Origin: Nitrospirota bacterium
Lineage (GTDB): Bacteria; Nitrospirota; Nitrospiria; JACQCE01
Assembly (NCBI GenBank): GCA_016201765.1
Contig: JACQCE010000062.1
Span: forward strand, 11,419-75,418
Direction of reading: 5' to 3'
DNA: 64,000 bases
In this document: piece by piece, positions 13,490 through 44,930 of the stretch
Layout of the letters: every line of letters begins with the position of its first letter
Position numbering within the stretch: the first letter of the stretch is position 1
Notes under the pieces: generated by a model
Databases searched by the model: none
Told to the model about the DNA's origin: nothing
Seen by the model: the letters and a program-made list of their open reading frames with translations, nothing else
Made by a program: the position numbers and the translations under genes

Positions 13490-13492
13490 CGG

Positions 13493-15097
13493 TCAGGCGC
13501 CCGGGCCCGTCTCCCCCGTCTCAATCGACACCGACGGAGGGCGAAGCGTGCGAAGGAATTCCAGATCGGTGGCGAAGAGATCACGGATGTCGTGCAGCCC
13601 CATCGCCACCATCGCCATCCGGTCCAGGCCCAATCCCCACGCGATCACCGGCACCGTCACCCCCATGGGGGTGGTGACCTCGGGCCGGAAAAGGCCGGCG
13701 CCGCCCAGCTCCATCCAGCCCAGCTTGGGGTGGCGGACGTGCAGCTCGACCGACGGTTCGGTGAAGGGGAAATAGGCCGGAAGGAATTTGATCTCGTCCG
13801 CCCGGGCCAGTTCAACGGCAAACAGCTTCAGCAGGCCGAGCAGCGTCCGGAAGGTGATCGTCGGATCGAGCACGATGCCTTCTATTTGGAAAAAATCGGG
13901 CGCGTGCGTGGCGTCGACCTGATCGTACCTGAAGCAACGCGTGATCGAAAAATATTTGCCCGGCACGCGGGGGCCGCCGGCCAGCGTCCGGGCCGAGACC
14001 GCCGTGCCCTGGCTGCGCAGAATCATCTGTCGGGCGCGGGCCCGATCGAAGGCGTACCGCCAGCCGGTCGATGCCCCGCCCCCGCCCCGCTCGTGCGTCA
14101 CCGCCACCCGTTCCAAGAGCGCCGGATCGATGTCATCCGCCGGCGCCAATCCCTTGGCGAAATAGACGTCGTGAATGTCGCGGGCGGGGTGAAACTGGGG
14201 CATGAAAAGCGCATCCATGTTCCAGAACTCGCTTTCCACCAGCGGCCCGCGCATCTCCTGAAAGCCCATCGACACCAGCTTGGCCTGCACCTCGCCCAGA
14301 AACTGCCGATAGGGATGGACGCGGCCGGCGCCGATCCGGGGCGGCTTCAAATCGATGTGGAACTTTCGAAAGCGCTTCCCCTTCCACGACCCGTCCTTGA
14401 GCATCTCCGGCGTCAGCTGGGAGACTTCCCCCGCGGCCGACTCGGCGGGGAGGCGCTGGACTAACTCGCGCCCCAGGTCGGTCAGGGCAAACCGTTTTGA
14501 CACCTTTTCATGAAGCTTGATAATTCCTCTCGTTTTCCATCTCTTCTCAATAAAATCTTCAAGAATAGTTTTATGATTTTCCGTGAGTGTTTCCTCACCA
14601 ACCGGAGTGGCGGAAGCGGCCAGCAGCCCAATGAGACCGGTCATGCCCTGTTCGCCGATCACTTGTGACGGCAGGCCGACGCCCGCCAACTCCAGCACCC
14701 CTCCCTGCCCGATCCGGGCCACGCCATGCTGCTTGAGGTTGCCGACCGCCGTGCTCACCTCCAACTGGTCCAATCCCAGCCGCTCGCGCAGGTCCGGGAT
14801 CAACAGACGCGTGCCGGCCTGAAGCGCCTGAACGATCCGCTGTTCCGGAATCAGTTCCGTGGCATAGCGCCGCCCCAGTTCGGTCAACGAGACGAACTTC
14901 GATGTCCGATCCTGTTCAACGCACAGGACTTCCTTCGACAGCAGCCAGCCAAATGCCATCGAGAGGCGCGATTCATCCAGACCGGTTCGTTGGGCCAGTT
15001 GATGATCCCAGGCCGCCGGCTCATCGCGAAACACGGCCAGGACCGTCCGCTCCAGCGGGTGCAGTCCGAACAGCAGTTGCTCGATGGATTGGGACAC
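13493..15097 (-). CDS. pheS: phenylalanine--tRNA ligase alpha subunit, archaeal/eukaryal type (long N-terminal winged-helix extension)
   Basis: 534 aa versus about 340 aa for bacterial PheS. Class II core with motif 3 GLGLDRMAMVAMGLHDIRDLF. About 200-aa N-terminal extension. Confidence 0.8.
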   Translation of the reverse strand: MSQSIEQLLFGLHPLERTVLAVFRDEPAAWDHQLAQRTGLDESRLSMAFGWLLSKEVLCVEQDRTSKFVSLTELGRRYATELIPEQRIVQALQAGTRLLIPDLRERLGLDQLEVSTAVGNLKQHGVARIGQGGVLELAGVGLPSQVIGEQGMTGLIGLLAASATPVGEETLTENHKTILEDFIEKRWKTRGIIKLHEKVSKRFALTDLGRELVQRLPAESAAGEVSQLTPEMLKDGSWKGKRFRKFHIDLKPPRIGAGRVHPYRQFLGEVQAKLVSMGFQEMRGPLVESEFWNMDALFMPQFHPARDIHDVYFAKGLAPADDIDPALLERVAVTHERGGGGASTGWRYAFDRARARQMILRSQGTAVSARTLAGGPRVPGKYFSITRCFRYDQVDATHAPDFFQIEGIVLDPTITFRTLLGLLKLFAVELARADEIKFLPAYFPFTEPSVELHVRHPKLGWMELGGAGLFRPEVTTPMGVTVPVIAWGLGLDRMAMVAMGLHDIRDLFATDLEFLRTLRPPSVSIETGETGPGA

Positions 15098-15110
15098 GGA
15101 AGGAAACGCG

Positions 15111-15839
15111 TTACCGACCCGCCGCCTCGCGCATCTGGCGGATGGTCTCTGTGTAATTGTTGCTGCCGAAGATCGCCGAGCCGGCCACGAAGATCGTCGC
15201 CCCGGCTTCGGCCAGGAGTTTGACGTTGTCCGGTTTCACGCCGCCGTCGACCTCCAGCTCGACCGACAGTCCCCGCGCATCGATGATGGCGCGCGCCTGC
15301 CGGACCTTCTCCAGCGCCTGCGGAATGAACCGCTGGCCGCCGAACCCCGGATTGACCGACATAATCAGCAGCAAGTCGGCTTCGGAGAGCATTGGCTCAA
15401 CCAGATTCAGGGGCGTGGAGGGATTGAGCGTCACGCCCGCCTTGACGCCCCGCTCCTTGATCATCTGGAGCGTCCGGTGCAGATGGGGACACGTTTCCAC
15501 ATGGACGGTCAAATAGGTGCTCCCGGCGTCGGCAAACTCCGGGATCAGCCGCTCCGGCTCGACGATCATCAGATGCACGTCGAGCGGCAGCCGCGTCGAC
15601 TTCCGGGCCGCTTCGACCACCACCGGCCCGACGGTCAGGTTCGGCACGAACCGGCCGTCCATCACGTCAATGTGGATCAGATCGGCGCCGGCCGCCTCCA
15701 CCGCCTGGATCTCGTCCGCCAGCCTAGAGAAATCGGCCGAGAGGATCGACGGGGCAATGCGTACGGGCCGAACCGGCCGCGGCGAGTGTGACGAGCCGGG
15801 CTTCCCAGGCTTCCCAAGCTTTGATGACGACGCGCTCAT
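15111..15839 (-). CDS. rpe: ribulose-phosphate 3-epimerase
   Basis: PSILSADF...HIDVMDGRFVPN...HLMI...GVTLNPSTP...MSVNPGFGGQ...VDGG are the Rpe signatures. Start at the internal ATG (MSASSSK) that overlaps the rsmB stop (ATGA). Confidence 0.9.
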   Translation of the reverse strand: MSASSSKLGKPGKPGSSHSPRPVRPVRIAPSILSADFSRLADEIQAVEAAGADLIHIDVMDGRFVPNLTVGPVVVEAARKSTRLPLDVHLMIVEPERLIPEFADAGSTYLTVHVETCPHLHRTLQMIKERGVKAGVTLNPSTPLNLVEPMLSEADLLLIMSVNPGFGGQRFIPQALEKVRQARAIIDARGLSVELEVDGGVKPDNVKLLAEAGATIFVAGSAIFGSNNYTETIRQMREAAGR

Positions 15840-20142: not shown

Positions 20143-20676
20143 ATGGCCGGTCAGTCCCGCCCATCGATCAGCAACGCCCATTTGAACGCCTTCGTGCAGC
20201 CGGCCATTCATGTGCTCGCCACCATGGTCGGCATCGCGGCCCAGGCCGGCCCGCCCCGGAAACATTCGGCCATCACGGACGCGGAAGCCGTGACGGTGAT
20301 GATCGGGATCAAAGGCGACTATACCGGGACCATCCTGTTCCGATTCAGCGAGCGGCTGGCCTGCCGGATCGTCAAAAATCTGATCAGCCCCGACCGGGAG
20401 ATCGAGGAGCTCAACAGCGACGTGCAGGATGCGCTCGGAGAACTGGCCAACGTCATTGTGGGAAACGCGACCGGCCATCTCGATGCGCTCGGCATTCAAG
20501 CCCTGATGACCCCTCCCATTATTACCATGGGCACAAACGTGAAATTTGTGTTTCCTGAGACTGACGAACTCGTGGTCGTACCGCTGGCCACGCAGGACGG
20601 AGAAATCGAGATGAACGTGGCCTTTGCGATGCAGGGGCCGCCAATGGCCGATGATGAACGACGCCACCCCCGCTGA
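20143..20676 (+). CDS. cheX: chemotaxis phosphatase CheX/CheC-like protein
   Basis: CheX-family fold signature (GIKGDYTGTILFRFSERLACRIV...ELANVIVGNA). 177 aa. RBS AGGAAGGTGG. Confidence 0.7.
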   Translation: MAGQSRPSISNAHLNAFVQPAIHVLATMVGIAAQAGPPRKHSAITDAEAVTVMIGIKGDYTGTILFRFSERLACRIVKNLISPDREIEELNSDVQDALGELANVIVGNATGHLDALGIQALMTPPIITMGTNVKFVFPETDELVVVPLATQDGEIEMNVAFAMQGPPMADDERRHPR

Positions 20677-20724
20677 GGGGATGCGCATGATCGCGCGCGC
20701 CGTACGTCCGGGGGGAGGAAGGAG

Positions 20725-21105
20725 ATGGAGATGAAGAAGAGAGCGCTCGTCGTTGATGATTCCGGCATGATGCGGCAGATGATCCGGACGCTGCTGGAAA
20801 AGAACGGCGTGGAGGTGGTCGGCGCCGCCGAAAACGGCAAACAGGCGGTCGAACTTTACACCGAGCTCAAGCCGGATTTCGTCACAATGGACATGATCAT
20901 GCCCCAGCAAAGCGGCCTGCAAACCCTGAAACAGATCAGGCAGCAGGACCCCCGGGCCGTCGTCATCATGATCAGCTCCCTCTCGGCCGAGGATTCCGCG
21001 GCCGTCTGCACCGAAGTGGGGGCCAGCGGGTACATCGTCAAGCCGTTTACCGAGGAGCAGGTCCTCGCCGTGCTGAACGAAGTTGTCGGGCCCGGATTCG
21101 GATGA
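20725..21105 (+). CDS. CheY-like single-domain response regulator
   Basis: Receiver domain with the DD pair (VVDDSGMMR), phospho-acceptor D (VTMDMIMP), T/S (ISSLS) and K (VKPF). Confidence 0.8.
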   Translation: MEMKKRALVVDDSGMMRQMIRTLLEKNGVEVVGAAENGKQAVELYTELKPDFVTMDMIMPQQSGLQTLKQIRQQDPRAVVIMISSLSAEDSAAVCTEVGASGYIVKPFTEEQVLAVLNEVVGPGFG

Positions 21106-21117
21106 GGATATAGGGGC

Positions 21118-22695
21118 TCATGCAGGAAAGAGGCGGTTCTTCAACTGCTCCAGCAGTTGCTTCGCCTTGGCGCTGGAGGGATCCCACCGCAGCGCCTCTT
21201 CGAACCTGACCAACGCCTTGCCCAGTGCCTTCGCCTGAAGATAGACCACCCCCAGCACAATATGGTAGTCCGCATTTGCCGGTTCCAGCTCGATGGCACG
21301 TTTCAGTTCGGCCTCGGCATCCTCCCGATGGTTCGGCACGGTCGCCAGCGCCTGGCCGAGCAGGGCGTGATAGCGCGCTTTTGAATCGTCCTGTTGCACG
21401 GCCGCCTCAAGGCTGGCGATCGCCTCCTTCACATTGCCGGCCAGGAGCGCCGCTTCTCCCCGTCTGCCCAACTCTTCGGCCGTCTGCCGCGATCTCAGAC
21501 TGGCCTCGCCCGCCCTGGCCTGCGCCCGCGTCCGCCATTGTGACGGTTGCGCCTCGTCATAGTCGCTCCGGGACGGTTCACGGCTGAGGATGTCGTAGGC
21601 CTCGGTCAGCCGGTCAAAGAGGACCACCAGCATCGGATGAACCGCTTCCATGCCGGGCTCATGGTGGCGGTCGGGGTGATAGGCCTTGGCCAGACGGAAA
21701 TAGGCCTTCTTGATCTCCATCGGCGAGGCGCCCCGGCCCACGCCAAGGATTTCATAGCGGTCCTTCCCTTCCAGCGCTTCATAGGCAAGCGTGATGGCGG
21801 AGGGGCTGGTGTCCACCTTTTCCGCGGCGAACCCTTCGAACAGTTTCACCCGGCCGGTTTCCTCATCTTCCTCCGTTTCCCCTGCGATCGCCTCCGTGAT
21901 GAAGGCTTCCAGCTCCAGTTGGAATCGCTTTTGAGAATCCTCGGTGTGCTCTTCAAATTCGTCCGTGGTCTTGGCCCGGATGATGCCGATGGCCAGCAGA
22001 AAATAGAGCAACTGCATGGCATGGAGGGTCGGAAGGGGCGATGAGCAGATCAGATCGCGAATGGTCCGGGCGCCGTTGATCATCAACAACAATTCCCGTT
22101 CAGGAGGGGTCACCGCAATCGCCTGGAACAAATCGCGGGGCTCGACGCTCATCCCCAGGGCCGTCTCAAACGGCGGGAGAAGTTTGGAAAGCCGTGCGAA
22201 ATCGTTGATGTTGCGAATACCCTCGTAGATCAGGGCGCCGGAGCTCATGCGAAGCGCGATCACTTCGTCGGCGGGCAGCTTCTGTTCCTCAAAGCGATAT
22301 TCCCCGTCCAGCCAGGTGAAGAGGCTGAGGATGATCCCCTTGACCTGCGTGGTGACGGCCTGGAACAGTTCCTTCGGCGTCAGGAACCCCTGCTCGACCA
22401 GGATCGCCCCCTGCCGCTTCTTCGACTCTTTCATCAAGCGGATGGAGGTTTCGTACTGGACATACGAAATCCTGTTTTCCTTGAGCAGCATCGATCCCAG
22501 CCGATCATCTTCATACTGGGATGATGCAAAGACCATGTCGCCGTTTTTGACGTAGATGCACTTGGTCTGATCGTTGCGGGTGACCGTGAGAATGCCGGTG
22601 GCCTGGCCGTGCTGCAACGCGCGCAACACGGCCGGCAGCGGCGTTTCACCCAGTCGACCGGTCAGCGGAATATCCCGCTTCACGGTCTCGTCCAT
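21118..22695 (-). CDS. DUF4388-like N-terminal domain / J-domain / TPR-repeat protein
   Basis: J domain with HPD (DRYEILGV...KKAYFRLAKAYHPDRH). C-terminal TPR repeats. N-terminal about 140 aa resembles DUF4388. Confidence 0.65.
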   Translation of the reverse strand: MDETVKRDIPLTGRLGETPLPAVLRALQHGQATGILTVTRNDQTKCIYVKNGDMVFASSQYEDDRLGSMLLKENRISYVQYETSIRLMKESKKRQGAILVEQGFLTPKELFQAVTTQVKGIILSLFTWLDGEYRFEEQKLPADEVIALRMSSGALIYEGIRNINDFARLSKLLPPFETALGMSVEPRDLFQAIAVTPPERELLLMINGARTIRDLICSSPLPTLHAMQLLYFLLAIGIIRAKTTDEFEEHTEDSQKRFQLELEAFITEAIAGETEEDEETGRVKLFEGFAAEKVDTSPSAITLAYEALEGKDRYEILGVGRGASPMEIKKAYFRLAKAYHPDRHHEPGMEAVHPMLVVLFDRLTEAYDILSREPSRSDYDEAQPSQWRTRAQARAGEASLRSRQTAEELGRRGEAALLAGNVKEAIASLEAAVQQDDSKARYHALLGQALATVPNHREDAEAELKRAIELEPANADYHIVLGVVYLQAKALGKALVRFEEALRWDPSSAKAKQLLEQLKNRLFPA

Positions 22696-22852: not shown

Positions 22853-23070
22853 GTGACCATGAGCGGAACCAGACCAAGTACCGTGCGCTGGCAAATTCTA
22901 GGTCTGTCGTTCGTGATCAGCGTGGTCACCTACGTGGATCGAGTGAACCCCGTACCACGGCTTCACAGCCGTGGCATCGGGGATAACTCTTCGGGCTGAC
23001 CACATCCTTCCTCCCCGCCTTGACAGGCGAGGCTTCCTTCGTGGTACGGGGTGAACATTGCCGTCGCCGG
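22853..23070 (+). pseudogene. truncated 5' fragment of an MFS transporter gene (paralogous to the 26032 MFS start), interrupted by a 102-bp insertion
   Basis: Nucleotide and protein match (TRPSTVRWQILGLSFVISVVTYVDRVN | IAVAG) to MDPQQPSRIRWQIVGLLFVISVVTYVDRVNIAVAG of the intact MFS. The reading frame diverges and terminates shortly afterwards. Confidence 0.55.
22949..23050. mobile_element. MITE-like 102-bp insertion with 11-12-bp terminal inverted repeats and a 6-bp direct duplication (GTGAAC)
   Basis: CCCGTACCACGG ... CGTGGTACGGG. Flanked by GTGAAC on both sides. Splits the VDRVN|IAVAG coding sequence of the MFS fragment. Confidence 0.4.
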
Positions 23071-23371
23071 CACGATCAAGGTCCTGAGACCGGCATTGAT
23101 CGAGCTTTTTCAAGAGCGTCAGTCGGGCTCGATAATATCTTAAACCCGGAAAGCGAGCGCAGTCCCCGCCTTCGCCTCGAACAAATGTGAGAGGTCATGT
23201 CCGATGTTGGTACCACTAACACCTCGGGGGGCAAGTGAACGAAGCTCACAAGGCCCCTTTCCACTCGGGCCGCAGAATCCCCGCCTTTGCCCCGAATCTT
23301 CGATTCTTAGTACAAACCTAGGCGGGGTTCTTCAACTTTCAGTGGAAAACATCTCCGGGGGAATTTTTCAC

Positions 23372-23400
23372 TTGACTCCGGCCGCCTGGAGCGCTATAAA
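23372..23400 (+). promoter_or_regulatory. sigma70-like promoter TTGACT-N17-TATAAA upstream of ADH-fusion paralog A
   Basis: Consensus-like hexamers. Leaves an about 255-nt leader before the ATG at 23662. Confidence 0.4.
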
Positions 23401-23661
23401 GGGGCCATTCCAGCGGCTTGAGGGGGCGAAGCCTGCGGGGACGCACGACAGGCGGTTCGCTCCCATGCCCGCATTAGTTTGTCAGCTTCTTCCGCGTTTT
23501 TTTCACTACACAAGAGGGCCAACGCACGTCTCAGGGCTGTGTCAAGGAGCTCTGATGGCTGGCGGCTTCTTTTCTCCTCAGCCTTCCCGTGGCGATCCGG
23601 GCGCCGACGGGGCCCAGCCCGAACCACACGCACGTACATTCCACCAACGCTGGAGGTTCCC

Positions 23662-25842
23662 ATGATGCCCTCACTCGTCCGCCATTGGCCCGTGTCGTCG
23701 CACAATCTGAAAAAAATCGCGTTCCTGCTGCTGCTCGGCGCGTCGGTTGCCGTCATCAGCATCCTCGTGCCGTCCAATGTCAGCCCCACGGTGTCGCCCT
23801 TGCACGGACAGACCCAGGAACTCGCGGGTTGGATGATCCAGGCCGTGGCCCAGTATGATCGCGAACGGCACACCCTGCTCAAACGGCAGATCGGGCAACT
23901 CGCCCGACAGATCAACCAATTCACGCAGAACCGGACCGGCCGTTTGCAGGAACAGTTCGGCCAGGCGATCGTGCAGACCCATCAGCGGATTCGCGCCGAA
24001 TGGATGCACCTGCGGGCCGAACGGGCGGCCACGGCACGAGCGTTGGATCAGATCATCGACACCCGATCGGCGCAATGGCAGGAGCAGTTGGGCAGGACCA
24101 TCGTGACCACCGCGCAGCGCGTTCCGGAGGGCGGCGCCGCCTTTCAGGCGGCGCTGCAGAAGAACGTGGCGCACCTGAGGCGGGTCGCGGAGCGAGCCGC
24201 CGCCCGGCTGAGCGATCAACTGGACGAATTGACACGCCAGCAGGCTGATTTTCCAAGTCTCATCGCCCTGCTCTACAAGGAGGCAATCGCCTCCGCCGGC
24301 CGATCCGCCCGGATGTTCGACGAAGGGCACCTGGCATGGGCGACCCGGGTCCATGCCGAGCTGGACCAGCAGGTCAAGTGGCAACGGCCGTCCGACGCCT
24401 ATGCGCAACTGGAGCTGGCGGCCAGATCGGCCTTGACCGGACCGGCCGGTGCCGGCGGCTTTATCGAATTCGGCCTCCCGGCGCTCGCGGGGCTGGTCTT
24501 CGTCATGGCGTGGTGCGGCACAACCCTGCGGAAGGACACGGACGCCGCCATGAACCGGAAAATCATCGGCCCCACGAAACCGCTCCTCCGGGAGCACGAT
24601 CGATCGGACGCCGAGGCGGACACCATGCGGCAACCCGTTCTCCTGTTTAGCTGGCCCAAAGAGGTCGTCTTCGGCGTCAACGTCTCGGCGACCATCGGGC
24701 GGTACGCCGCCAAGGATCGCGTTCACAAAGCGCTGCTGATCACCGACCGCAACCTCCACGACCGCGGCCTGCTGGAACCGCTGAAGGCGTCATGCTCCGG
24801 CGCCGGGATCGGGTGGACCGTCTACGACGAGGTCGCGCACGAGGCGCCCGACACGAACATCAGCAAGGCCTGCGAGACGTGCCGTCACACGGCGGCGGAT
24901 TTGATCGTCGCGGTCGGCGGCGGCAGCGTGATCGACACGGCGAAGGCGGTCGGGATTCTCGTCACCAACGGCGGCCGGCTCCAGGACTATGAGGGCCTGG
25001 ACAAGGTCCCCTCCCCGCCGCCGCATTTCTACGCCGTGCCGACCACCGCCGGTTGCGGCAGCGAAACCAGCCAATTCTGCGTCGCGCTGGATACCGCGCA
25101 CAAGCGGAAACTGGAGATCATCAGCCGCCGCGTCATCCCGCAGATGATCTTCATCGACCCGGCGTTGATGCTCACCATGTCCCCGGAGCTGACGGCCGGC
25201 AGCGGGATCGATGCGCTGACGAACGCGATCGAAGCCTATTGCTCCACCTGGGCCAGCCCGCTGACCGACACCCTGGCCTTGCACGCCATTCGGCTGATCG
25301 CGGGCGCGTTGCGCGTGGCCGTGTCCAACGGCGCCAACCTCGAAGCGCGCCGGCAAATGGCGGTGGCGGCGTTCGAAGCCGGCCTGGCGTTCAACAACGC
25401 CCAGTGCGGGGCGGCCCACGCCTTGGGCCACCCGATCGCCGGGCTGTTGAACGTGCCGGAGCGGCTGAGCGAAGGCATCCTCCTGCCGCATGTTATGCGC
25501 TACAATCTGCGCGCGGGCATGGCCCCCCGTCTGGCGGAGGTGGCCGGCGCCCTGGGCGAGCGGGTGGAGGACCTCGACCCGCAGGCCGCGGCGGAACGGG
25601 CCGTCATCGCCGTGCAGTGGCTGTTGTCGGATATCGGACTCCCCGCCACCCTGGACAAGATCGGCGTGGCCAAGGAGGCCATCCCGGAACTGACCCGGCA
25701 GGCGGCGCAGGACACCTTTCTGCGGACAAACCCGCGCACGTTGCACGCGCAAGAGATCGAACACCTCTATCTCCGCGCCTTTGAGGAACAAGCATGGAGA
25801 GCCTACGCCTCAGTGAACCGATGGGATGAGACGGTGCACTGA
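23662..25842 (+). CDS. membrane-anchored fusion protein: N-terminal TM / about 270-aa helical domain / TM / C-terminal iron-containing alcohol dehydrogenase (Fe-ADH family), paralog A
   Basis: C-terminal about 390 aa with Fe-ADH motifs GGGSVIDTAKAVG, VPTTAGCGSETS, GIDALTNAIEAYCS, CGAAHALGHPIAG. Hydrophobic segments near the N-terminus and at GFIEFGLPALAGLVFVMAWCG. RBS GGAGG 5 nt before ATG 23662. Confidence 0.8.
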   Translation: MMPSLVRHWPVSSHNLKKIAFLLLLGASVAVISILVPSNVSPTVSPLHGQTQELAGWMIQAVAQYDRERHTLLKRQIGQLARQINQFTQNRTGRLQEQFGQAIVQTHQRIRAEWMHLRAERAATARALDQIIDTRSAQWQEQLGRTIVTTAQRVPEGGAAFQAALQKNVAHLRRVAERAAARLSDQLDELTRQQADFPSLIALLYKEAIASAGRSARMFDEGHLAWATRVHAELDQQVKWQRPSDAYAQLELAARSALTGPAGAGGFIEFGLPALAGLVFVMAWCGTTLRKDTDAAMNRKIIGPTKPLLREHDRSDAEADTMRQPVLLFSWPKEVVFGVNVSATIGRYAAKDRVHKALLITDRNLHDRGLLEPLKASCSGAGIGWTVYDEVAHEAPDTNISKACETCRHTAADLIVAVGGGSVIDTAKAVGILVTNGGRLQDYEGLDKVPSPPPHFYAVPTTAGCGSETSQFCVALDTAHKRKLEIISRRVIPQMIFIDPALMLTMSPELTAGSGIDALTNAIEAYCSTWASPLTDTLALHAIRLIAGALRVAVSNGANLEARRQMAVAAFEAGLAFNNAQCGAAHALGHPIAGLLNVPERLSEGILLPHVMRYNLRAGMAPRLAEVAGALGERVEDLDPQAAAERAVIAVQWLLSDIGLPATLDKIGVAKEAIPELTRQAAQDTFLRTNPRTLHAQEIEHLYLRAFEEQAWRAYASVNRWDETVH

Positions 25843-26031
25843 CACACGCCCCCCGGCACATCAACCGGTTTCAGGGCCCGCGAGGGAAGGCTTGCCTCGT
25901 CGAGTCCCCCCGCGCAAACATGAGCGGTCAGGGCGCTGAGGGAAATTCTCGGTCTCATCGGCCCAATCTGCTTGTGTTCCCCCCATTGCTTTTCCCTCCC
26001 CCCTGACATACCATCGGCGGAGCCTTCCGCC

Positions 26032-27318
26032 ATGGATCCGCAACAACCAAGCCGCATCCGCTGGCAAATCGTGGGATTGTTGTTCGTGATCAGCGTGGTG
26101 ACCTACGTGGATCGCGTCAATATCGCCGTCGCCGGCAAGCTCATGATGCCGGAGTTCGGCCTGTCGGCCGTGCAGATGGGGACGGTCTTCTCGTCATTCG
26201 TCCTGGGCTATGCGCTTTTTCAAATCCCCGGCGGCTGGATGGGCGATCGATGGGGCGCCCGGCTGGTGCTCGCGGCGGCGGTGCTCTGGTGGTCGCTCTT
26301 CACCGTCCTCACGGCCGCCGCAGCTCATCCATTGTTGTCGTCGACGATCGGCGCGCTGGGCGCCCTGCTCGCGGTGCGGTTTCTCATCGGCGTGGGCGAA
26401 GCGGCGGCACTGCCCAACTTCAACCGGACGGTGGCCGACTGGCTCGCGCCGTCGGAACGGGGCGTGGGCATGGGCATCTCGATCGGCGGGATCGGTTTCG
26501 GCTCCGCGATCACGCCGCCGCTCGTCGCCTGGCTGATGACGCGCTACGGATGGCCCGTCGCCTTCTATGTAACGGGCGGGATCGGCCTGCTGGTAGCGGC
26601 AATCTGGTATGGACTGGCCCGGGACCGCCCGCATGAACATCCACGCGTCAACAGGGCCGAACTTGACTGGATCACCCAGGCGGCGCCCGCCGCGCCGGCC
26701 ACCGACTCGCCGTCGCCGCCATTCGGCGCGCTGCTGAAGCGGCCATCGGTCTGGTTTCTCACGCTCAGTTATACGATGCTCGGGTATATCGCGTATATCT
26801 ACCTCTCCTGGTTTTTTCTCTATCTGGTCAACGTCCGCCACTTTACCGTCCTGCAGGGCTCGTTCTGGGCCGCCGGCCCGTTTCTCGCCATGGCGGTGGG
26901 CTGCCCGGCCGGCGGATGGCTCAGCGATCGACTCACGGCCCATTATGGCCATCGGATTGGACGGGCCGGCGTCGGCGGGTCGGGACTGGTGCTCACCGCC
27001 GGCTTCATCTACAGCGGCGCCGGCGTCGATGATCCCTATGCGGCCATCATTCTGCTCTCGCTGGGGGCGGGCATACTCTATGCCACGGCGGGCGCCTACT
27101 GGGCGAGCACGATCGATCTGTCTCCGCATCATGCCGGCGCGCTGTCCGGTCTGATGAACATGGGCGCCAATCTCGGCGGCGTCGTCTCACCAACCCTGAC
27201 GCCGCTCATCGGTGAACGATGGGGCTGGCCGGTCGCCCTGACCGTCGCGGCCGGTGTGGCGTTGATCGGGGGTTTGCTGTGGCTGGGTGTGACAGATCAT
27301 GAAGAACGATCGGCCTGA
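26032..27318 (+). CDS. MFS transporter
   Basis: 12 predicted TM helices. MFS loop motif GxLaDRxGaR (GGWMGDRWGARL). Alternative upstream start at 25972. Confidence 0.75.
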   Translation: MDPQQPSRIRWQIVGLLFVISVVTYVDRVNIAVAGKLMMPEFGLSAVQMGTVFSSFVLGYALFQIPGGWMGDRWGARLVLAAAVLWWSLFTVLTAAAAHPLLSSTIGALGALLAVRFLIGVGEAAALPNFNRTVADWLAPSERGVGMGISIGGIGFGSAITPPLVAWLMTRYGWPVAFYVTGGIGLLVAAIWYGLARDRPHEHPRVNRAELDWITQAAPAAPATDSPSPPFGALLKRPSVWFLTLSYTMLGYIAYIYLSWFFLYLVNVRHFTVLQGSFWAAGPFLAMAVGCPAGGWLSDRLTAHYGHRIGRAGVGGSGLVLTAGFIYSGAGVDDPYAAIILLSLGAGILYATAGAYWASTIDLSPHHAGALSGLMNMGANLGGVVSPTLTPLIGERWGWPVALTVAAGVALIGGLLWLGVTDHEERSA

Positions 27319-27435
27319 CCTCCAAATCGGCCTCATACGGACGGAAGGATCAGCATATCAAGTGCTTGCAGGCCACCACCCGCCAGCCAAATTATCCGCC
27401 CAGTTGCAGATGACCGGCATCGGATCGGAATAGAT

Positions 27436-27590
27436 ATTCGAACCGGGTAGTGGGTCAGTTTGATGGATTCCACCGTGGCAAAAATGGGGACACGTCCCAA
27501 TTTCGTTGCGTGCCGTGCGTCGCACGAGGACATTGGGACGTGTCCCCATTTTTGAGCCGGTTGCGGTGAAACTGACCCACTACCTCGAAC
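27436..27590. repeat. about 155-bp nested perfect/near-perfect palindrome
   Basis: Outer arms TCGAACCGGGTAGTGGGTCAGTTT / AAACTGACCCACTACCTCGAACC. Inner arms AAAAATGGGGACACGTCCCAATTTCG / ATTGGGACGTGTCCCCATTTTT. Central GTGCGTCGCAC palindrome. Confidence 0.8.
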
Positions 27591-27598
27591 CGATTGTA

Positions 27599-27627
27599 CT
27601 TGACATTATTTCCGAAGAGGCGTATAA
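27599..27627 (+). promoter_or_regulatory. sigma70-like promoter TTGACA-N17-TATAAG upstream of ADH-fusion paralog B
   Basis: Immediately after the 155-bp palindrome. About 345-nt leader. Confidence 0.4.
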
Positions 27628-27972
27628 GTCGAGTATCAACAGTTGAAAAACGGGCCGTGGTGTTGTGTTGCGGCGCCCGGCTCGCAGCAGGATCATTTCC
27701 CCTCGTTTTATCTGCACTACTTCCAGCAACGGAAGGTTCAGTGTGGCCCGGAGCCGAAAGGATGCGCTCCGAAGGCTTGGCATTTTCTTTTTCCGCCCGT
27801 CTGTTGTTGAAGAATCACGCCTTTACAGGCTGGGATTCTTCGACATGAGTGGAGAAAGGCTCCTTGGTATCCGCTCGCTGACCCCGCCTTCAGAGGGCGG
27901 GGATTGCGCTCGCTATGCATGTTCGCCGCACATGCCCTCCGGGCGTGTGCACACCAACGGAGGTGCCGAGCC

Positions 27973-30159
27973 ATGAACCGGACACATCACATCATGCGGC
28001 CGATCGGATCCAGCGGGCGGCGTCTGCTCCTGCCCGCAAACCTTGTTGCAATCTGCGTGATCGGGCTGCTGGCCCCGCAGGCCGCACCGGCTGCACCAAC
28101 ACCGACTCACGACCAGCTTCAGCAGCGGCTCGGCCAGACCATCGTCATGGTGGCCCGGCACGATCAAGCGCTCCTGGACCGACAGGTGGAGCAGATGACC
28201 CGGCTGATGCGGGGAAGCACACGGTTCCAGCAGGGCCAGGCCGGGCGGATAGAGGAAAGTCTCGGGCTCGCCATCATCAAGACGGCGGGCTCGATTCAGG
28301 AGGAGCAGTCCGCTCTGAAGAGTCGCATGATCCTTATTGGCCGTGAGCTTGATCTGCTGTCGGAAGATTCCGCGGCCGGCCGTCAGACACAACTGGGGTG
28401 GGCGGTTCGCACGGCCGCGCAACGCGCGCCACAAGGCGGCGCGGCCTTTCAGGCCGCGCTGGGGAAGGAGATCACCCGGCTGGAACAGGTCCGGCAACGC
28501 ACGACCATCCGCCTGCAGGATGAGCTGCGCGCTCTGAAACGCCTGGACGCCGACTTTGCCCAAACCATTCCGCAACGTTACCAGAAGGCCATGGAGTCCA
28601 CCCGCCTGACGGTTCTCATGGCGGATGACTCCACTGTCGTCTGGACCGACCGACAACTCCAGGAATTGTCCCATCAGGTGCTGCAGCAACAATCTTCACA
28701 AGTCTATGCGCAACTGGCCGGCCTCACGCGGGCGGCCCTGACCGCGCCGGCCGGCGTCGGCGGGTTCATCGAATACGGCCTGGCCGCCATGACCGGAGCG
28801 ATGGCCGTCATGGTGTGGTTCGGCCTATCGACCAGAAAGGAGAGAGCCCCGTTGCCCGTCAATCCCACAGACGAGGCCGTGTCATCACTGCGCCGCTGGA
28901 GCATGCAAGGCGGCTCGGGGAACGGGGGCAACAGCCACGAGGCGAATATCCTGTCCCAGCTCGTCACATTCTTCAGCTGGCCCAGGGAGATCGTCTTCGG
29001 CAACAACGTGATCGGAACCATCGGGCGGTATGCCGAGAGGGAACGGATCAAGAGGGCGTTGGTGATCACGTCCCGGGACCTTCATCACCATGGCCTGCTC
29101 GAACCGCTGAAGGCATCCTTGTCGCACAGCGGGATTGCGTTCCGCGTCTACGACCACGTCGAGCACGACGTGCCCGACGTGGTCATCGCCAATGCCGGCA
29201 AAGAGTACCAACGAATGGCCACCGATCTGATTGTCGCAGTCGGCGGTGGGAGCGTCATTGACACGGCGAAAGCGGTGGGGATCCTTGCCACCAACGGTGG
29301 CCTCATCCAAGACTACGAAGGCTTGGACACCATCCCATCACCGCTGCCCCATTTTTTCGCCGTGCCCACCACCGCCGGCTGCGGCAGCGAAACGAGCCAG
29401 TTCTGCGTCGTGCTGGATACCGCGCACAAACGGAAACTGGAGATCGTCAGCCGTCTGGTCATTCCGCAGATGATCTTCATCGATCCGACGCTGATGGTCA
29501 GCATGCCGCGCGAACTGACGGCCGGCAGCGGAATCGATGCGTTAAGCAACGCGATCGAAGCCTACTGCTCCACGTGGGCCAGCCCCCTGACCGACACCCT
29601 GGCGCTGGACGCCGTCAGGCTGATCTCGGAGTCGTTGCGCACGGCCGTGGCCGACGGCAGCAATCTCGAAGCCCGGCGCCAGATGGCCGTGGCCGCATTT
29701 GAAGCCGGCCTGGCGTTCAACAACGCGCAGTGCGGAGCGGCGCACGCCCTGGGCCATCCGGTGGCCGGTCTGTTCAACGTGCCGGAGCGGGTGAGCGAAG
29801 CCATCTTGCTGCCGCATGTCATGCGGTACAACCTGGAAACCAACATGGCCAGGATGGCGCAACTGGCCGTGGCCATGGGGGAGTCGGTGGAAGGTCTCAC
29901 CCAACAGGAAGCGGCCGAGCAGGCGATCTCCGCCGTGCAATGGCTGCTGCTGGATATCGGTCTTCCAGCGACTTTTGACAAGCTTGGTGTCGCCAATGAC
30001 GCCATCCCCGAACTCGCCCGGCAAGCCGCGCAGGATTTCTTTCTGCGGACGAATCCTCGAACGCTCACCCGGGGGGAGATCGAGCAACTGTACCACCAAG
30101 CGTTTCAAAAGTTCGGCAGAGATACGGTGCATCGCAAAACCGCCGGCGTCATCCTGTGA
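27973..30159 (+). CDS. membrane-anchored TM / helical-domain / TM / Fe-ADH fusion protein, paralog B
   Basis: Same architecture and motifs as paralog A (about 60-80% identity in the ADH part). Shared N-domain motif AAQRxPxGGAAFQAAL and the TM segment GGFIEYGLAAMTGAMAVMVW. Confidence 0.8.
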   Translation: MNRTHHIMRPIGSSGRRLLLPANLVAICVIGLLAPQAAPAAPTPTHDQLQQRLGQTIVMVARHDQALLDRQVEQMTRLMRGSTRFQQGQAGRIEESLGLAIIKTAGSIQEEQSALKSRMILIGRELDLLSEDSAAGRQTQLGWAVRTAAQRAPQGGAAFQAALGKEITRLEQVRQRTTIRLQDELRALKRLDADFAQTIPQRYQKAMESTRLTVLMADDSTVVWTDRQLQELSHQVLQQQSSQVYAQLAGLTRAALTAPAGVGGFIEYGLAAMTGAMAVMVWFGLSTRKERAPLPVNPTDEAVSSLRRWSMQGGSGNGGNSHEANILSQLVTFFSWPREIVFGNNVIGTIGRYAERERIKRALVITSRDLHHHGLLEPLKASLSHSGIAFRVYDHVEHDVPDVVIANAGKEYQRMATDLIVAVGGGSVIDTAKAVGILATNGGLIQDYEGLDTIPSPLPHFFAVPTTAGCGSETSQFCVVLDTAHKRKLEIVSRLVIPQMIFIDPTLMVSMPRELTAGSGIDALSNAIEAYCSTWASPLTDTLALDAVRLISESLRTAVADGSNLEARRQMAVAAFEAGLAFNNAQCGAAHALGHPVAGLFNVPERVSEAILLPHVMRYNLETNMARMAQLAVAMGESVEGLTQQEAAEQAISAVQWLLLDIGLPATFDKLGVANDAIPELARQAAQDFFLRTNPRTLTRGEIEQLYHQAFQKFGRDTVHRKTAGVIL

Positions 30160-33554: not shown

Positions 33555-34388
33555 TTGCCACACCACCGCCTCGTTCGATCGCTTGTGCTGCTCTCGGCCG
33601 TCATCCTGCCCTCCCTGTTCGGCGGTCCGGCGGGCTGTCAGCGACCCGCCGCCGCCCCGGGCATGGTCTGGATCCCCGGAGGCCCCTTCACCATGGGCAC
33701 CGATGAGACGGACGCGGAAGGGCGGGCACTGGAGTTCGGCCTGACCAAGCCGTGGTTTGAAGACGAGCATCCCACGCATACGGTCAACCTGCCCGGCTTT
33801 TATCTGGACCGTAATGAAGTGACCAACGCCGATTTTGCCGCCTATGTGGCTGCCACCGGCGCAAGGGTCCCGGGAACCTGGAAAGCCGCCACCTATCCCG
33901 GCGGCGAGTCGAACATGCCGGTGGCCAGCGTGAACTGGTACCAGGCGAATGACTATTGCGCCTGGGCGAAGAAACGGCTGCCGACCGAGGCGGAATGGGA
34001 GAAGGCGGCCCGGGGCACCGACGGACGACTCTATCCCTGGGGCAACGACTTCTCGCTCGACAAGGCGAATCTCATGTCCGGCTCGGTGCAGCCGGTGGGC
34101 CTGTTTGCGCGCGAGCCGAGCCCCTACGGCGTGAACGATCTGGTCGGCAACGTCTGGGAATGGACGGCGGACTGGTATCTGCCCTATCCGGGATCGACCG
34201 CCGCCTCAAAAGATTTCGGCCAGAAATTCAAAGTGGTGCGCGGCAAGTCCTGGACCAAGGGCTTCGGCCATCAGGAGAAGGCGGAGGTGAGCCAGATCAT
34301 CGCCCATGAAGCGCGCGGCGGCTTTCGGCTCTATTTCGATCCGGTTTTCGGATTCAACGACCTGGGGGTCAGATGCGCAAAATCTTAA
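33555..34388 (+). CDS. periplasmic FGE/SUMF1-fold (formylglycine-generating-enzyme family) protein 1, lacks the catalytic Cys pair
   Basis: FGE-sulfatase domain motifs (WIPGG.FTMG, HTVNLPGFYLDRNEVTN, RLPTEAEWEKAARG, NVWEWTADWY, GFRCA). Signal peptide. No CxxxxC near the C-terminus. Confidence 0.7.
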   Translation: MPHHRLVRSLVLLSAVILPSLFGGPAGCQRPAAAPGMVWIPGGPFTMGTDETDAEGRALEFGLTKPWFEDEHPTHTVNLPGFYLDRNEVTNADFAAYVAATGARVPGTWKAATYPGGESNMPVASVNWYQANDYCAWAKKRLPTEAEWEKAARGTDGRLYPWGNDFSLDKANLMSGSVQPVGLFAREPSPYGVNDLVGNVWEWTADWYLPYPGSTAASKDFGQKFKVVRGKSWTKGFGHQEKAEVSQIIAHEARGGFRLYFDPVFGFNDLGVRCAKS

Positions 34389-35470
34389 TCATGGCCGCAA
34401 GCATGCTTTACCTCGCGGCTGCGGCCAACGGGCAAACAACGGTGGCTCGGGGCGTGGGGGCATCGGAGGACCCTTCTTCGCTTGTGCCACACGGGCCCCC
34501 ACATTTAATGAAGCCCGCCTGCCGCCAGTGCCACATTGATGGGAAGAAACCCGTGGCCGATTACTCAAGCAATCCCGAATGCCGGGAATGCCATCTGCCT
34601 GACGGCAGAGCCTCCGGGCCGCCGACCGCCCCGGCCATTGCGGCGCCGGTTGCCGCCGGCGCGAATCCGCCGCATGCCGCGACCTCGGTCCAGTCTGGGG
34701 AGACGATCATCACGCAGAAAATGGTCTCCATCCCGGCCGGGCCGTTCTGGATGGGCAACAACGGCCGGGGCGCCGACGGTCCCGGCGACGAGGATGAACA
34801 GCCCCTGCATCAGGTCACGGTTGAGGCCTATTCAATGGACGTCTATGAAACCACCAATGCGATGTTCAAAGAGTTCGTCGACGCCGTCAACTATGCGACA
34901 CCCAAACTGTGGAAGAACGGCGTCTATCCAAGCGGCAAGGCCAACCATCCGGTCACGTACGTGTCATGGTTTGATGCGGAGGAATTCTGCCGGTGGGCCG
35001 GCAAGCGGCTGCCGACCGAGGCGGAATGGGAAAAGGCCGCCCGCAGCCCGGACAAACGGATCTTCCCCTGGGGGAATCAATTCGATCCGATGAAGGCCAA
35101 CACGCCGCAATACTGGATGGCCATCCATCAGAATGACACGGCTGATACCATGCCTGTCGGCAGTTTTGAGGCCGGGAAAAGCCCCTATGGCCTCTACGAC
35201 ATGTCGGGCAACGTCTATGAATGGGTCAATGATTGGTACACCCAGTATCCGGGCAACCGGTTTCCCAACGATCATTACGGCGCGAAGAACAAGATCGTCC
35301 GCGGGGGGTCGTGGTACGACTGCCTCTCCTACGGCTGCGGCTTGAGTTCCCCCACCTATAACCGCAGCCGGTTCAACCCAGACATCCGCAACAAGGGATT
35401 CGGATTCCGCTGTGCAAAATCCGCCCACGGACGCGCCAAATCCACAACCGGACAGCGAGGCGAGCCATGA
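34373..35470 (+). CDS. diheme cytochrome c fused to FGE/SUMF1-fold domain, retains C-x4-C (DCLSYGC)
   Basis: Two CXXCH motifs (CRQCH, CRECH) in the first 80 aa after a signal peptide. C-terminal FGE fold with the Cys pair positioned as in the catalytic Cys pair of human FGE (C-x4-C). Confidence 0.7.
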   Translation: MRKILIMAASMLYLAAAANGQTTVARGVGASEDPSSLVPHGPPHLMKPACRQCHIDGKKPVADYSSNPECRECHLPDGRASGPPTAPAIAAPVAAGANPPHAATSVQSGETIITQKMVSIPAGPFWMGNNGRGADGPGDEDEQPLHQVTVEAYSMDVYETTNAMFKEFVDAVNYATPKLWKNGVYPSGKANHPVTYVSWFDAEEFCRWAGKRLPTEAEWEKAARSPDKRIFPWGNQFDPMKANTPQYWMAIHQNDTADTMPVGSFEAGKSPYGLYDMSGNVYEWVNDWYTQYPGNRFPNDHYGAKNKIVRGGSWYDCLSYGCGLSSPTYNRSRFNPDIRNKGFGFRCAKSAHGRAKSTTGQRGEP

Positions 35471-36294
35471 AACAATGGTCATTGTTCACGTGGGCCGCGC
35501 TCGCGGCGCTGCTCGTGCTATCGGCTGCCTGCCAGAAACCGCCCCACGGCATGGTGCTCATTCCGGCCGGGGAGTTCATCATGGGCACGGACGAAGTGGA
35601 TACGGACAAGATCGGGCTCGGATACGGCATCGTCAAGCCCTGGTTCGACGACGAACATCCGAAGCGGCGGTTCTCCCTTCCCGCCTATTACATCGACCAA
35701 TACGAGATTACCAACGAGCAATACCAGGCGTTTCTGGTGGAGAGCAATCGCCGTCCGCCCCGGTACTGGCCCAACAATCAGTATCCGGCCGGCAAGGATC
35801 GCCATCCGGTGACGTGGATCACCTGGGAGGATGCCGACGCCTATTGCCGGAGGGCCGGCAAACTGTTGCCGACAGAGGCGCAGTGGGAGAAAGCGGCCCG
35901 GGGGCCCAACGGCCTGATCTATCCCTGGGGCAATGACTTTGATCCGGCCAAGGCGAACGTCGGCGGCTCAGCCGGCGGCACCAAACCGATCGGCAGCATC
36001 GAAGCGGGCAAGAGTCCGTACGGCGTGTACGACATGACCGGCAACGTCTGGGAATGGACGGCCGATTGGTATGAGCCCTACCCCGGCGCGCAATTCACCG
36101 CCGGGTTCTACGAGGATAAACTGGGGCACCGGTACAAGGTGATCCGTGGCCTCTCCTGGTCGCCGATCGGCCACTATGACGCCGAAGACGCCAAGGCGGT
36201 CATGCGCCACTACGCACGGGCGTCCTACCGGTTGTTTTACTATCCGAACGACGGGCTGGAGGATCTGGGGTTCCGATGCGTCAAACCGGCATAA
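35467..36294 (+). CDS. periplasmic FGE/SUMF1-fold lipoprotein 3, lacks the Cys pair
   Basis: Lipoprotein-like signal (LVLSAAC). FGE-fold motifs. ATGA overlap with the upstream gene. Its last about 100 nt are duplicated at 38017..38119. Confidence 0.7.
   Translation: MKQWSLFTWAALAALLVLSAACQKPPHGMVLIPAGEFIMGTDEVDTDKIGLGYGIVKPWFDDEHPKRRFSLPAYYIDQYEITNEQYQAFLVESNRRPPRYWPNNQYPAGKDRHPVTWITWEDADAYCRRAGKLLPTEAQWEKAARGPNGLIYPWGNDFDPAKANVGGSAGGTKPIGSIEAGKSPYGVYDMTGNVWEWTADWYEPYPGAQFTAGFYEDKLGHRYKVIRGLSWSPIGHYDAEDAKAVMRHYARASYRLFYYPNDGLEDLGFRCVKPA
36188..36291 (+). repeat. 103-bp direct repeat, copy 1 (3' end of FGE-fold gene 3); copy 2 at 38017..38119
   Basis: About 97% identity between the copies. 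They bracket the low-GC segment 36292..38016. Confidence 0.85.
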
Positions 36295-44406: not shown

Positions 44407-44411
44407 GTCCG

Positions 44412-44930
44412 TCACTGTGCCGGCGGTGGGACGTACTCTTTGCTGTGATCGGCCGGTTGCCCTCCATGTGCGAAGGTATTCTCGTAGGCCATCACCTTCC
44501 AGCGTTGTTCCTCGGTCAATTTGGTCTTCCACGCCTTCATCTTGGTGTTCGGCACCCCTTCGGAAATTCTCCAGAACCAGAAGCTGTCGGAGAAGTGTTT
44601 CATGTTCTCACCCACGCGGAAATCGCGGGCCCCGCGCTTCTTGGGCTTGCCGTCCCGGCCGTGGCAGCTGGCGCAGTTGACGTCCACGTCGAGTTTGCCT
44701 TCAAAAATATCTTTGCCTTCCGCCACAATCTTGGGATCCATCCACCACCCGTCCGGCATGTGCTTGTCGGCATATTCGGCGGGCACCGGCGGGAAGACCA
44801 CCGGGTTTTCCCCGCCCCCCTCGCCGCACCCGAAGATGAATAATAAAGACATGACCGACAGCCCCGCCGCCACTCGACCCATCTGCACTCGCCCCATCCG
44901 ATCCGACTCCTTTCTGTGCCGTGTCACCAA
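44412..44930 (-). CDS. monoheme cytochrome c lipoprotein
   Basis: CASCH motif. Signal with lipobox-like LLFIFGC. Confidence 0.7.
   Translation of the reverse strand: MVTRHRKESDRMGRVQMGRVAAGLSVMSLLFIFGCGEGGGENPVVFPPVPAEYADKHMPDGWWMDPKIVAEGKDIFEGKLDVDVNCASCHGRDGKPKKRGARDFRVGENMKHFSDSFWFWRISEGVPNTKMKAWKTKLTEEQRWKVMAYENTFAHGGQPADHSKEYVPPPAQ

Follow-up and report, generated by a model that had tools for sequence, protein, structure and literature searches.

A rare Nitrospirota protein family joins a predicted two-helix membrane module to a divergent iron-type alcohol dehydrogenase fold

Iron-type alcohol dehydrogenases (Fe-ADHs) are textbook soluble metalloenzymes. Why, then, would a bacterium place this fold behind two membrane helices and a long helical domain, and do so twice in one locus? 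The question is raised by a 64,000-nucleotide stretch of a Nitrospirota genome (contig JACQCE010000062.1, positions 11,419 to 75,418 of the forward strand; hereafter the window), which is ordinary chromosome carrying ClpB, ThrRS, Fmt, RsmB, UvrB, squalene-hopene cyclase and a cytochrome-bd-like protein. A first-pass annotation of the window described two open reading frames (ORFs), here ORF A and ORF B, as membrane-anchored Fe-ADH fusions laid out like sensor kinases. We find that the architecture is real, rare and unannotated, and that it represents a lineage-specific branch of iron-type ADHs in which two metal ligands have been replaced and an invariant active-site Arg gained, and which is joined to the membrane through a previously undescribed domain predicted to be periplasmic. 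The features on which the argument turns are the following.

23662..25842, plus strand: ORF A, 726 aa, membrane-anchored Fe-ADH-like protein, a diverged extra copy
23716..23772, plus strand: ORF A first transmembrane helix (TM1) or signal-anchor, aa 19-37 (hydropathy, charge, AlphaFold2 helix 13-35)
23797..24447, plus strand: ORF A predicted periplasmic all-alpha domain, aa 46-262 (AlphaFold2, hhalign, periodicity)
24457..24525, plus strand: ORF A second transmembrane helix (TM2), aa 266-288, GFIEFGLPALAGLVFVMAWCGTT (conservation, hydropathy, charge)
24526..24645, plus strand: ORF A predicted cytoplasmic linker, aa 289-328 (low model confidence, indels)
24646..25782, plus strand: ORF A Fe-ADH-fold domain, aa 329-707 (Pfam 1e-44 to 1e-47; PDB relatives)
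25972..27318, plus strand: major facilitator superfamily (MFS) transporter of the anion:cation-symporter (ACS) type (Pfam MFS_1, 4e-66)
27973..30159, plus strand: ORF B, 728 aa, the second membrane-anchored Fe-ADH-like protein, orthologous to the gene that related genomes carry once; TM1 aa 16-35, predicted periplasmic domain 44-260, TM2 264-286, linker 287-333, ADH fold 334-711

Both reading frames are intact and identical in length to the public gene calls P0001 (ORF A) and P0003 (ORF B), which derive from a metagenome-assembled genome (MAG) named 'Nitrospirae bacterium'. A GGAGG box precedes the ATG of each, 5 nt upstream in the case of ORF A. The two proteins are 57% identical over 693 aa and are paralogues, as had been described, and an MFS_1 gene does lie between them, its translation probably beginning at the ATG at 26032. 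Among NCBIfam models this transporter scores highest against TIGR00893, the D-galactonate transporter subfamily, at 244 bits, which does not reach the cut-off of 395. Common to A and B are a hydrophobic anchor, a 216-aa all-helical domain, a second hydrophobic helix, a variable linker and a complete Fe-ADH fold, and all the motifs quoted by the first-pass annotation (AAQRxPxGGAAFQAAL, GGFIE[FY]GL...VM.W, GGGSVIDTAKAVG, VPTTAGCGSETS and CGAAHALGHP) were found in both proteins. The claim of a complete C-terminal Fe-ADH domain also held: the Pfam families PF00465 (Fe-ADH) and PF25137 (ADH_Fe_C) both match, and only at aa ~332-706 of A and ~337-711 of B, while the first ~330 aa of either protein have no Pfam match above threshold.

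Searching 5.8 billion clusters returned about 50 proteins with the same layout, 698-750 aa long and 41-57% identical. Beyond them comes a gap in score, from 461 to 219 bits, and the lower value marks the onset of ordinary Fe-ADHs, AdhE and hydroxyacid-oxoacid transhydrogenases. Every named source of a family member is Nitrospirae, Nitrospirota or Nitrospiria. Among 185,579 GTDB species-representative genomes the full-length protein occurs at 7 loci only, all in Nitrospirota, and at the next-best loci the ADH half alone is matched, at ~41% identity. This is a small family restricted to Nitrospirota, in which a two-TM membrane protein is fused to a divergent branch of the group III (iron-type) ADHs. 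A literature search yielded no paper on a membrane-anchored Fe-ADH or on this protein family in Nitrospira. The notion that the fusion is an artefact, created by mis-assembly or by read-through joining two genes, is hardly credible: 39 full-length sequences taken from separate assemblies can be aligned over their entire length with no break in frame, and the presence of the full architecture in both window paralogues also counts against it. In its favour are split database entries, the position of P0043 next to an upstream 294-aa ORF, and the 407-aa P0032, which shares a 90%-identity cluster with a 712-aa member. P0043 had been considered as an 'anchor-only' ADH variant and was rejected as such, since an in-frame stop cuts the gene in two and P0043 is the downstream piece.

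The two halves are also found apart. At two loci (L089 and L092) the N-terminal protein stands alone, with no ADH found by tblastn within 8-11 kb. At two others (L090 and the locus of P0042) the ADH-like protein stands alone, in a form of ~405 aa with the same Asn/Gln signature as the fusions. A further locus (L088, 7101-9362) carries both halves in one frame with a stop codon between them just after TM2, either a natural break at the domain boundary or a sequencing error. This pattern of fused, split and separate forms, of the Rosetta-stone kind, argues that each module is a functional unit and that the two act together.

The ADH half is unambiguous at the level of the fold. Its two Pfam matches score 152 and 159 bits in ORF A and 145 and 189 bits in ORF B (gathering cut-offs 31.3 and 27), and its PDB relatives span the whole fold of ~375 residues at 225-283 bits; they include methanol dehydrogenases, DhaT, ADH2 and FucO. 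Like the group III enzymes of the DhaT/FucO/ADH2/Mdh branch (PDB 3BFJ, 1RRM, 3OWO, 8ZRL), the family matches both Pfam halves over their full length and retains the GGGS pyrophosphate loop, the PTTAG.GSE motif, the first Asp and the third ligand, a His. It differs from them in having Asn for the second ligand His, Glu or Gln for the fourth and Arg for the Gly that follows, and in carrying ~330 residues of predicted membrane and periplasmic sequence in front of the domain, the known enzymes being soluble. The ligands of DhaT (1,3-propanediol oxidoreductase, PDB 3BFJ) we take to be D198, H202, H267 and H281; the residues that face them in the PDB alignment are D517, N521, H586 and E600 of ORF A, followed by R601, and the site residues of ORF B are D522, N526, H591, E605 and R606. 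Counts at these positions (ORF A numbering) in 50 family members and in the 70 next-best Fe-ADHs are as follows.

Position 517: family Asp 39, Glu 11; others Asp 70
Position 521: family Asn 50; others His 70
Position 586: family His 50; others His 70
Position 600: family Glu 28, Gln 22; others mostly His or Gly
Position 601: family Arg 50; others mostly Gly or Tyr
GGGS (419-422) and D425: family invariant (GGGS in 49-50 of 50); others invariant

In place of the canonical Asp-His-His-His tetrad, the family thus has Asp/Glu-Asn-His-Glu/Gln and an invariant Arg. The first-pass annotation had judged both the NAD-binding and the metal-ligand motifs intact. The former is so, GGGS being kept; the latter must be corrected, as two of the four ligands (N521 and E/Q600) are replaced in every one of the 50 members. 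On their sequence, the proteins belong to the Fe-ADH fold family but would not be canonical iron enzymes. The ADH half is at the same time the most conserved part of the protein (mean identity 66.5%, versus 38% for the N-terminal domain), so we regard the metal site as a family-specific redesign under strong constraint and not as decay. Donors of the O/O/N/O type would suit a harder metal, or no metal at all, and the invariant Arg may replace the charge of the metal or bind a carboxylate. Should the domain still be catalytic, the fold would be seen to work around another metal or without any; should catalysis have been lost, the family would join the ErcA/YiaY proteins discussed below as a second, independent case of the fold being used for sensing.

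The residue that usually discriminates NAD from NADP in this fold, at the end of beta-2, is Asp in 44 of the 50 members and Ser in 6, ORF B included. ORF A has D362 (24745-24747), whereas ORF B has S367 (29071-29073), and in ORF B and its five closest relatives the Ser is followed by Arg. The paralogues may for this reason prefer different cofactors: Asp362 points to NAD for A, and Ser367 with the Arg behind it makes NADP possible for B.

We tentatively interpret these proteins as membrane-tethered, NAD(P)(H)-binding oxidoreductases for a small carboxylate-bearing substrate, held near the transporter of that substrate and equipped with a structural or oligomerising periplasmic domain, an interpretation to which we give somewhat less than an even chance. 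The ADH-like domain would bind NAD(P)(H) at the inner membrane face and act, or report, on a small hydroxy- or oxo-carboxylate or an aldehyde that the adjacent carboxylate-type transporter imports. The invariant Arg would bind the substrate carboxylate or substitute for the lost metal charge. The periplasmic domain would serve as a structural module, for oligomerisation, positioning or partner binding, and would take no part in allosteric ligand sensing.

The transporter link comes from the loci themselves. A related Nitrospiria MAG holds a locus (L086) that is syntenic with the window and has one fusion copy, in the order DnaJ-TPR (minus), MFS (plus), fusion (plus), DUF362 (minus), glyoxalase (minus), chorismate lyase, UbiA, FGE-sulfatase (formylglycine-generating-enzyme-like). 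Its single-copy orthologue, P0002, is 75% identical to ORF B and 56% to ORF A, and an ACS-type MFS gene lies directly upstream of a fusion gene both here and in the window. ORF A is preceded by what is left of another such gene.

22859..23071, plus strand: remnant of a second ACS-type MFS gene upstream of ORF A, its first ~36 codons, MSGTRPSTVRWQILGLSFVISVVTYVDRVN ... VNIAVAG

This remnant is broken after ...YVDRVN by a 106-nt insert (22947-23052) and resumes as VNIAVAG. The insert has perfect 13-nt terminal inverted repeats (22947-22959 and 23040-23052) and looks like a miniature inverted-repeat element; a weak Rfam match to HgcC (28 bits, below the cut-off, minus strand) overlaps it. From the MFS remnant upstream of ORF A we conclude that an MFS-plus-fusion unit was duplicated in tandem, after which the first MFS gene decayed and ORF A diverged. 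That the duplicated unit included the MFS gene supports a link between transporter and fusion. In another subclade (P0016, P0018, P0025 and locus L011) the fusion gene divergently adjoins a DUF485+SSF pair of the ActP/YjcH type, so that carboxylate-type transporters, either ACS-type MFS or DUF485+SSF, adjoin the gene in two of three subclades. This association with acetate/glycolate-type and sugar-acid-type transporters points to uncharacterised organic-acid handling in the carriers, which are uncultured members of the Nitrospirota. The phylum matters to the nitrogen cycle, and how it uses organic substrates is little understood.

Several observations weigh against the tethered-oxidoreductase interpretation. 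The four DUF485+SSF loci share wider synteny and so amount to about one independent observation; the clade of P0047 has no adjacent transporter, and the neighbourhood is not conserved family-wide. In the window, the MFS gene and ORF B are probably not one operon, since a 139-nt palindrome lies between them and ORF B has a promoter-like element of its own. The rebuilt metal site could equally reflect lost catalysis. TM2 is of moderate hydropathy only (family mean 1.48), in a topology drawn from hydropathy and charge alone, and a periplasmic domain of fixed 216-aa length is not explained by a plain tether. The palindrome (27446-27584) is nested, with outer arms of 16 nt that are 100% complementary and inner arms of 44 nt that are 80% complementary, and stands between the MFS stop codon and the promoter-like box of ORF B. 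It drew spurious miRNA-family hits on both strands, and could represent a terminator acting in both directions or a further small mobile element.

How the protein sits in the membrane was predicted from hydropathy and charge in the 39 aligned family members. All 39 have a strongly hydrophobic segment near residues 15-40 (in ORF A, TM1 reaches a Kyte-Doolittle 19-residue mean of 2.62) and a second, moderately hydrophobic and Gly/Ala-rich segment at ~266-288 (mean hydropathy of TM2 in ORF A, 1.46). Family means of Lys plus Arg around these segments are as follows.

N-terminal tail: 3.1
15 residues after TM1: 0.6
15 residues before TM2: 1.8
15 residues after TM2: 3.3

By the positive-inside rule this distribution fits, and leads us to predict, an N-in / loop-out / C-in arrangement, and no other arrangement would leave the NAD-binding fold in the cytoplasm. 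Cytoplasmic positions are accordingly predicted for the N-terminus and ADH fold, and a periplasmic one for the helical domain. The N-terminal anchor and second TM helix of the first-pass annotation are in this way borne out by two hydrophobic segments conserved across the homologues. TM1 may be an uncleaved anchor in ORF A, or a cleavable signal in ORF B, which has APA-AP after the hydrophobic core. A Tat export signal in ORF B (SGRRLLL) was considered and ruled out, the Arg pair not being conserved in the closest relatives. TM2 is the best-conserved piece of the N-terminal half, at 54% identity, with G271, G277 and W284 invariant and E269 at least 90% conserved (ORF A numbering).

Such a topology invites comparison with two-TM sensors (histidine kinases, chemoreceptors, receptor cyclases), which share the predicted N-in, periplasmic helical and C-in arrangement and the cytoplasmic catalytic domain. 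Were the proteins allosteric transmembrane sensors, the periplasmic domain would bind a signal and a conformational change in TM2 would switch the dehydrogenase, as in a receptor cyclase or sensor kinase. We consider this unlikely. The ~216 aa placed outside fit a sensor, as do the helical make-up of the periplasmic domain, which recalls many sensor domains, and the invariant Gly and Trp and conserved Glu of TM2. The linker that follows TM2 does not: residues 289-330 of ORF A have a predicted local distance difference test (pLDDT) score below 50, and across the family the linker varies between 31 and 46 aa with 29% identity and many indels. No HAMP, PAS or signalling helix was found between TM2 and the ADH fold in a Pfam scan of A and B, and the family also differs from two-TM sensors in having no DHp domain and no match of its periplasmic domain to a known sensor fold. 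The ADH fold is predicted to hang from TM2 by a flexible tether of this length; the stretch resembles a tether and not a conformational relay, and a disordered linker of variable length argues against signalling in the manner of a kinase. Further counts against a sensor are that the N-terminal domain occurs without any output domain and the ADH half without the N-terminal domain, at unlinked loci, that no ligand-binding fold was recognised, Foldseek giving only generic coiled coils at E >= 0.018, and that the active site of an Fe-ADH lies within one subunit, so that rearranging a dimer offers no obvious switch. Of the sensor-kinase analogy drawn in the first-pass annotation, the predicted TM/helical domain/TM/Fe-ADH layout stands and is unusual, whereas the idea of a dehydrogenase as output gained no positive evidence, the linker being disordered and the halves occurring separately.

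What, then, is the periplasmic domain? In the AlphaFold2 model of ORF A it comprises helices at 47-89, 91-133, 135-153, 159-239 and 244-258, with block-mean pLDDT mostly 85-98. Residues 46-177 form three 44-residue repeats, each opening with Q-E-x-L-G-x-x-I (QE.LG..I; hhalign probability 86-94%), and the RVPEGGAAF motif lies at aa 150-166. Averaged over the family, hydrophobicity oscillates across the entire domain with one sharp period, 3.67 residues (11/3), and has virtually no power at 3.5. The length is 215-218 aa in 39 of 39 homologues, at the 38% identity given above. No known domain could be assigned to this half: Pfam at E <= 1 gave no consistent family match in 21 members, NCBIfam models and a profile search of PDB sequences gave no relative, and Foldseek against the PDB returned generic elongated coiled coils (the Tm14 chemoreceptor hairpin, Smc arms, XaxB, EnvC, Vipp1 and Wzc). 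These fold matches are statistically insignificant.

An exhaustive hidden Markov model search of 1.84 billion representatives gave only 34 hits to the domain. They fall into three groups: the fusions, about 13 complete proteins of ~300 aa in which the helical domain stands alone with its anchor, TM2 and a short tail, and a few remote repeat proteins. Among the latter, P0149 has the same TM2 motif, GGFAEYG, P0148 resembles P0149, and P0144 has 22-residue QE.IG repeats. The N-terminal half is by this evidence not a known domain regularly fused to Fe-ADH, and constitutes a new, rare module of defined length that Pfam and NCBIfam leave unannotated. As an aside, QE.(L/I)G..I also recurs as 22-24-residue tandem repeats in the unrelated proteins P0144, P0146 and P0148, which comprise a 649-aa phage-tape-measure-like protein, a 1244-aa NACHT-like NTPase and a 236-aa secreted protein with a C-terminal anchor.

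Repeats in multiples of 11 (44 = 4 x 11) and a 3.67-residue period are shared with the exchangeable apolipoproteins and other 11-mer amphipathic repeat proteins (PF01442, PF07464). Weak Pfam matches to these (E 5e-4 to 0.04) appear in 2 of the 21 members, at 18 bits against a cut-off of 90 for PF01442; the family domain differs in being bacterial, predicted to be periplasmic, and anchored at both ends. In Wzz, Wzc and CapA/CapB two TMs flank a long periplasmic helical domain, with an optional cytoplasmic enzyme after TM2. The family could by analogy be an envelope module regulated from inside, its hendecad-repeat domain forming an oligomeric stalk or a belt at the membrane surface in a Wzz/Wzc-like layout and its ADH-like domain coupling it to NAD(P)H or a metabolite. 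We hold this to be improbable. In its favour, the stand-alone N-domain proteins have more distinct 50%-identity representatives than the fusion, the domain keeps its length despite its sequence divergence, the 11/3 periodicity runs throughout, the Foldseek list includes membrane-shaping proteins besides elongated coiled coils (Tm14 hairpin, Smc arms, EnvC, Vipp1, Wzc), and the fused, split and unlinked forms parallel those of Wzc, CapA/CapB and Wzz. The likeness is one of architecture only. None of the 21 N-domains matches Wzz/GNVR (PF02706 or PF13807, at E <= 1) or any other Pfam family consistently, every fold match is insignificant, a dehydrogenase fold takes the place of the tyrosine kinase, the loci examined have no conserved neighbours for polysaccharide, cell-wall or secretion functions, and it is the ADH half that is the more strongly conserved.

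A different precedent comes from the enzyme side. The best NCBIfam model for the proteins is NF041833 (ErcA, an alcohol dehydrogenase-like regulatory protein), at 349 bits for A and 357 bits for B. ErcA/YiaY belongs to the ped/exa ethanol-oxidation network of Pseudomonas, where it works with the kinase ErcS'/YiaZ and has no measurable part in bulk alcohol degradation (PMC12997753, PMC12551699), an instance of the Fe-ADH fold used for signalling. Applied here, a membrane-held ADH-like domain would act as a co-sensor and not in bulk metabolism, binding or turning over an alcohol, aldehyde or hydroxy-acid and informing a GGDEF protein, response regulator or kinase. We rate this, too, as unlikely. 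Signalling genes do occur near some copies: a GAF-GGDEF gene follows P0025, the stand-alone P0042 lies between a response regulator and RsbU_N-GGDEF plus an HATPase_c_2 gene, and upstream in the window (20143-22695) CheX and a single-domain CheY-like receiver lie on the plus strand, beside a minus-strand DUF4388 (PatA_N)-DnaJ-TPR gene. In L086, too, the DnaJ-TPR gene stands next to the MFS/ADH unit. Among the family loci examined no signalling gene is a conserved neighbour, and the window neighbours (DUF4388-DnaJ-TPR, MFS, DUF362, glyoxalase, CheX and the receiver domain) include no histidine kinase, in contrast to ErcA, which is soluble and co-cistronic with one. The scores fall far short of the ErcA cut-off of 550, by ~200 bits, and exceed those of lactaldehyde reductase by ~40-50 bits only. 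Moreover, H281 of YiaY has been reported as needed for signalling (PMC12997753), and its equivalent is Glu or Gln in 50 of 50 members, an equivalence taken from the alignment to H281 of DhaT and not from the YiaY sequence itself.

The regulatory regions of the two genes offer a further comparison between the paralogues. Promoter-like elements and conserved leader blocks were placed as follows.

23372..23400, plus strand: ORF A promoter-like element, TTGACT at 23372-23377, 17-nt spacer, TATAAA at 23395-23400 (sequence reading, alignment)
27600..27628, plus strand: ORF B promoter-like element, TTGACA, 17-nt spacer, TATAAG (sequence reading, alignment)
23450..23585, plus strand: conserved block in the ORF A leader, aligned with the B and L086 leaders
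27663..27805, plus strand: conserved block in the ORF B leader, aligned with the A and L086 leaders
L086 7800-7947: conserved block in the L086 leader, aligned with the A and B leaders

The boxes stand where the first-pass annotation had put them, followed by long leaders of ~255 nt (A) and ~340 nt (B), and the same element precedes the L086 orthologue. TTGAC-N18-TATAA occurs 5 times in the window (142, 23372 and 27600 on the plus strand; 45659 and 57792 on the minus strand) versus 0.03 expected from shuffles, which suggests that this genome has a well-defined sigma-70-type consensus with a -10 box of TATAA plus any base. A generic sigma-70 scan found nothing above chance in the window; its -10 rule demands T at position 6, and it missed the TATAAA and TATAAG boxes for that reason.

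The leader block measures 136-148 nt, with a mean column identity of 72% over the three leaders. A and B are 67% identical in it, similar to the 63.5% of their N-domain coding DNA. A covariance model (R1) built from the three leaders scores the A block at 113 bits and the B block at 151 bits, and RNAalifold folds them into hairpins with some compensatory changes, in three sequences only. A riboswitch or other known RNA was considered, and Rfam at E <= 1 gave nothing relevant; R1 found no further leader copies in 20 related loci, and a pattern scan of metagenomes gave two unrelated hits only. One more elaborate proposal brings these strands together: the family would be a new kind of transmembrane device made of one protein, in which a periplasmic hendecad-repeat stalk or belt of fixed length is coupled, mechanically or spatially, to an Fe-ADH fold that has no metal, contains the Arg and senses NAD(P)H or a carboxylate. 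It would link the state of the envelope or periplasm to cytoplasmic redox or organic-acid status, with the conserved leader (145 nt) as an extra, undescribed cis-regulatory RNA. We think it rather improbable, and continue to favour, tentatively, the membrane-tethered oxidoreductase.

Elsewhere in the window, two plus-strand ORFs (12293-14464, 723 aa; 15084-15791, 235 aa) have a coding-like third-position GC and no Pfam match at the thresholds used. Three consecutive FGE-sulfatase genes lie at 33555-36294 (plus strand), and genes of this type also flank the stand-alone N-domain gene in L089 and occur at the orthologous locus L086. Finally, a 680-aa protein at 42490-44532 (minus strand) has a match to cytochrome bd oxidase subunit I, at 81 bits, that covers no more than the first ~240 positions of the latter; the protein presumably resembles the 'bd-like' oxidases described for Nitrospira.

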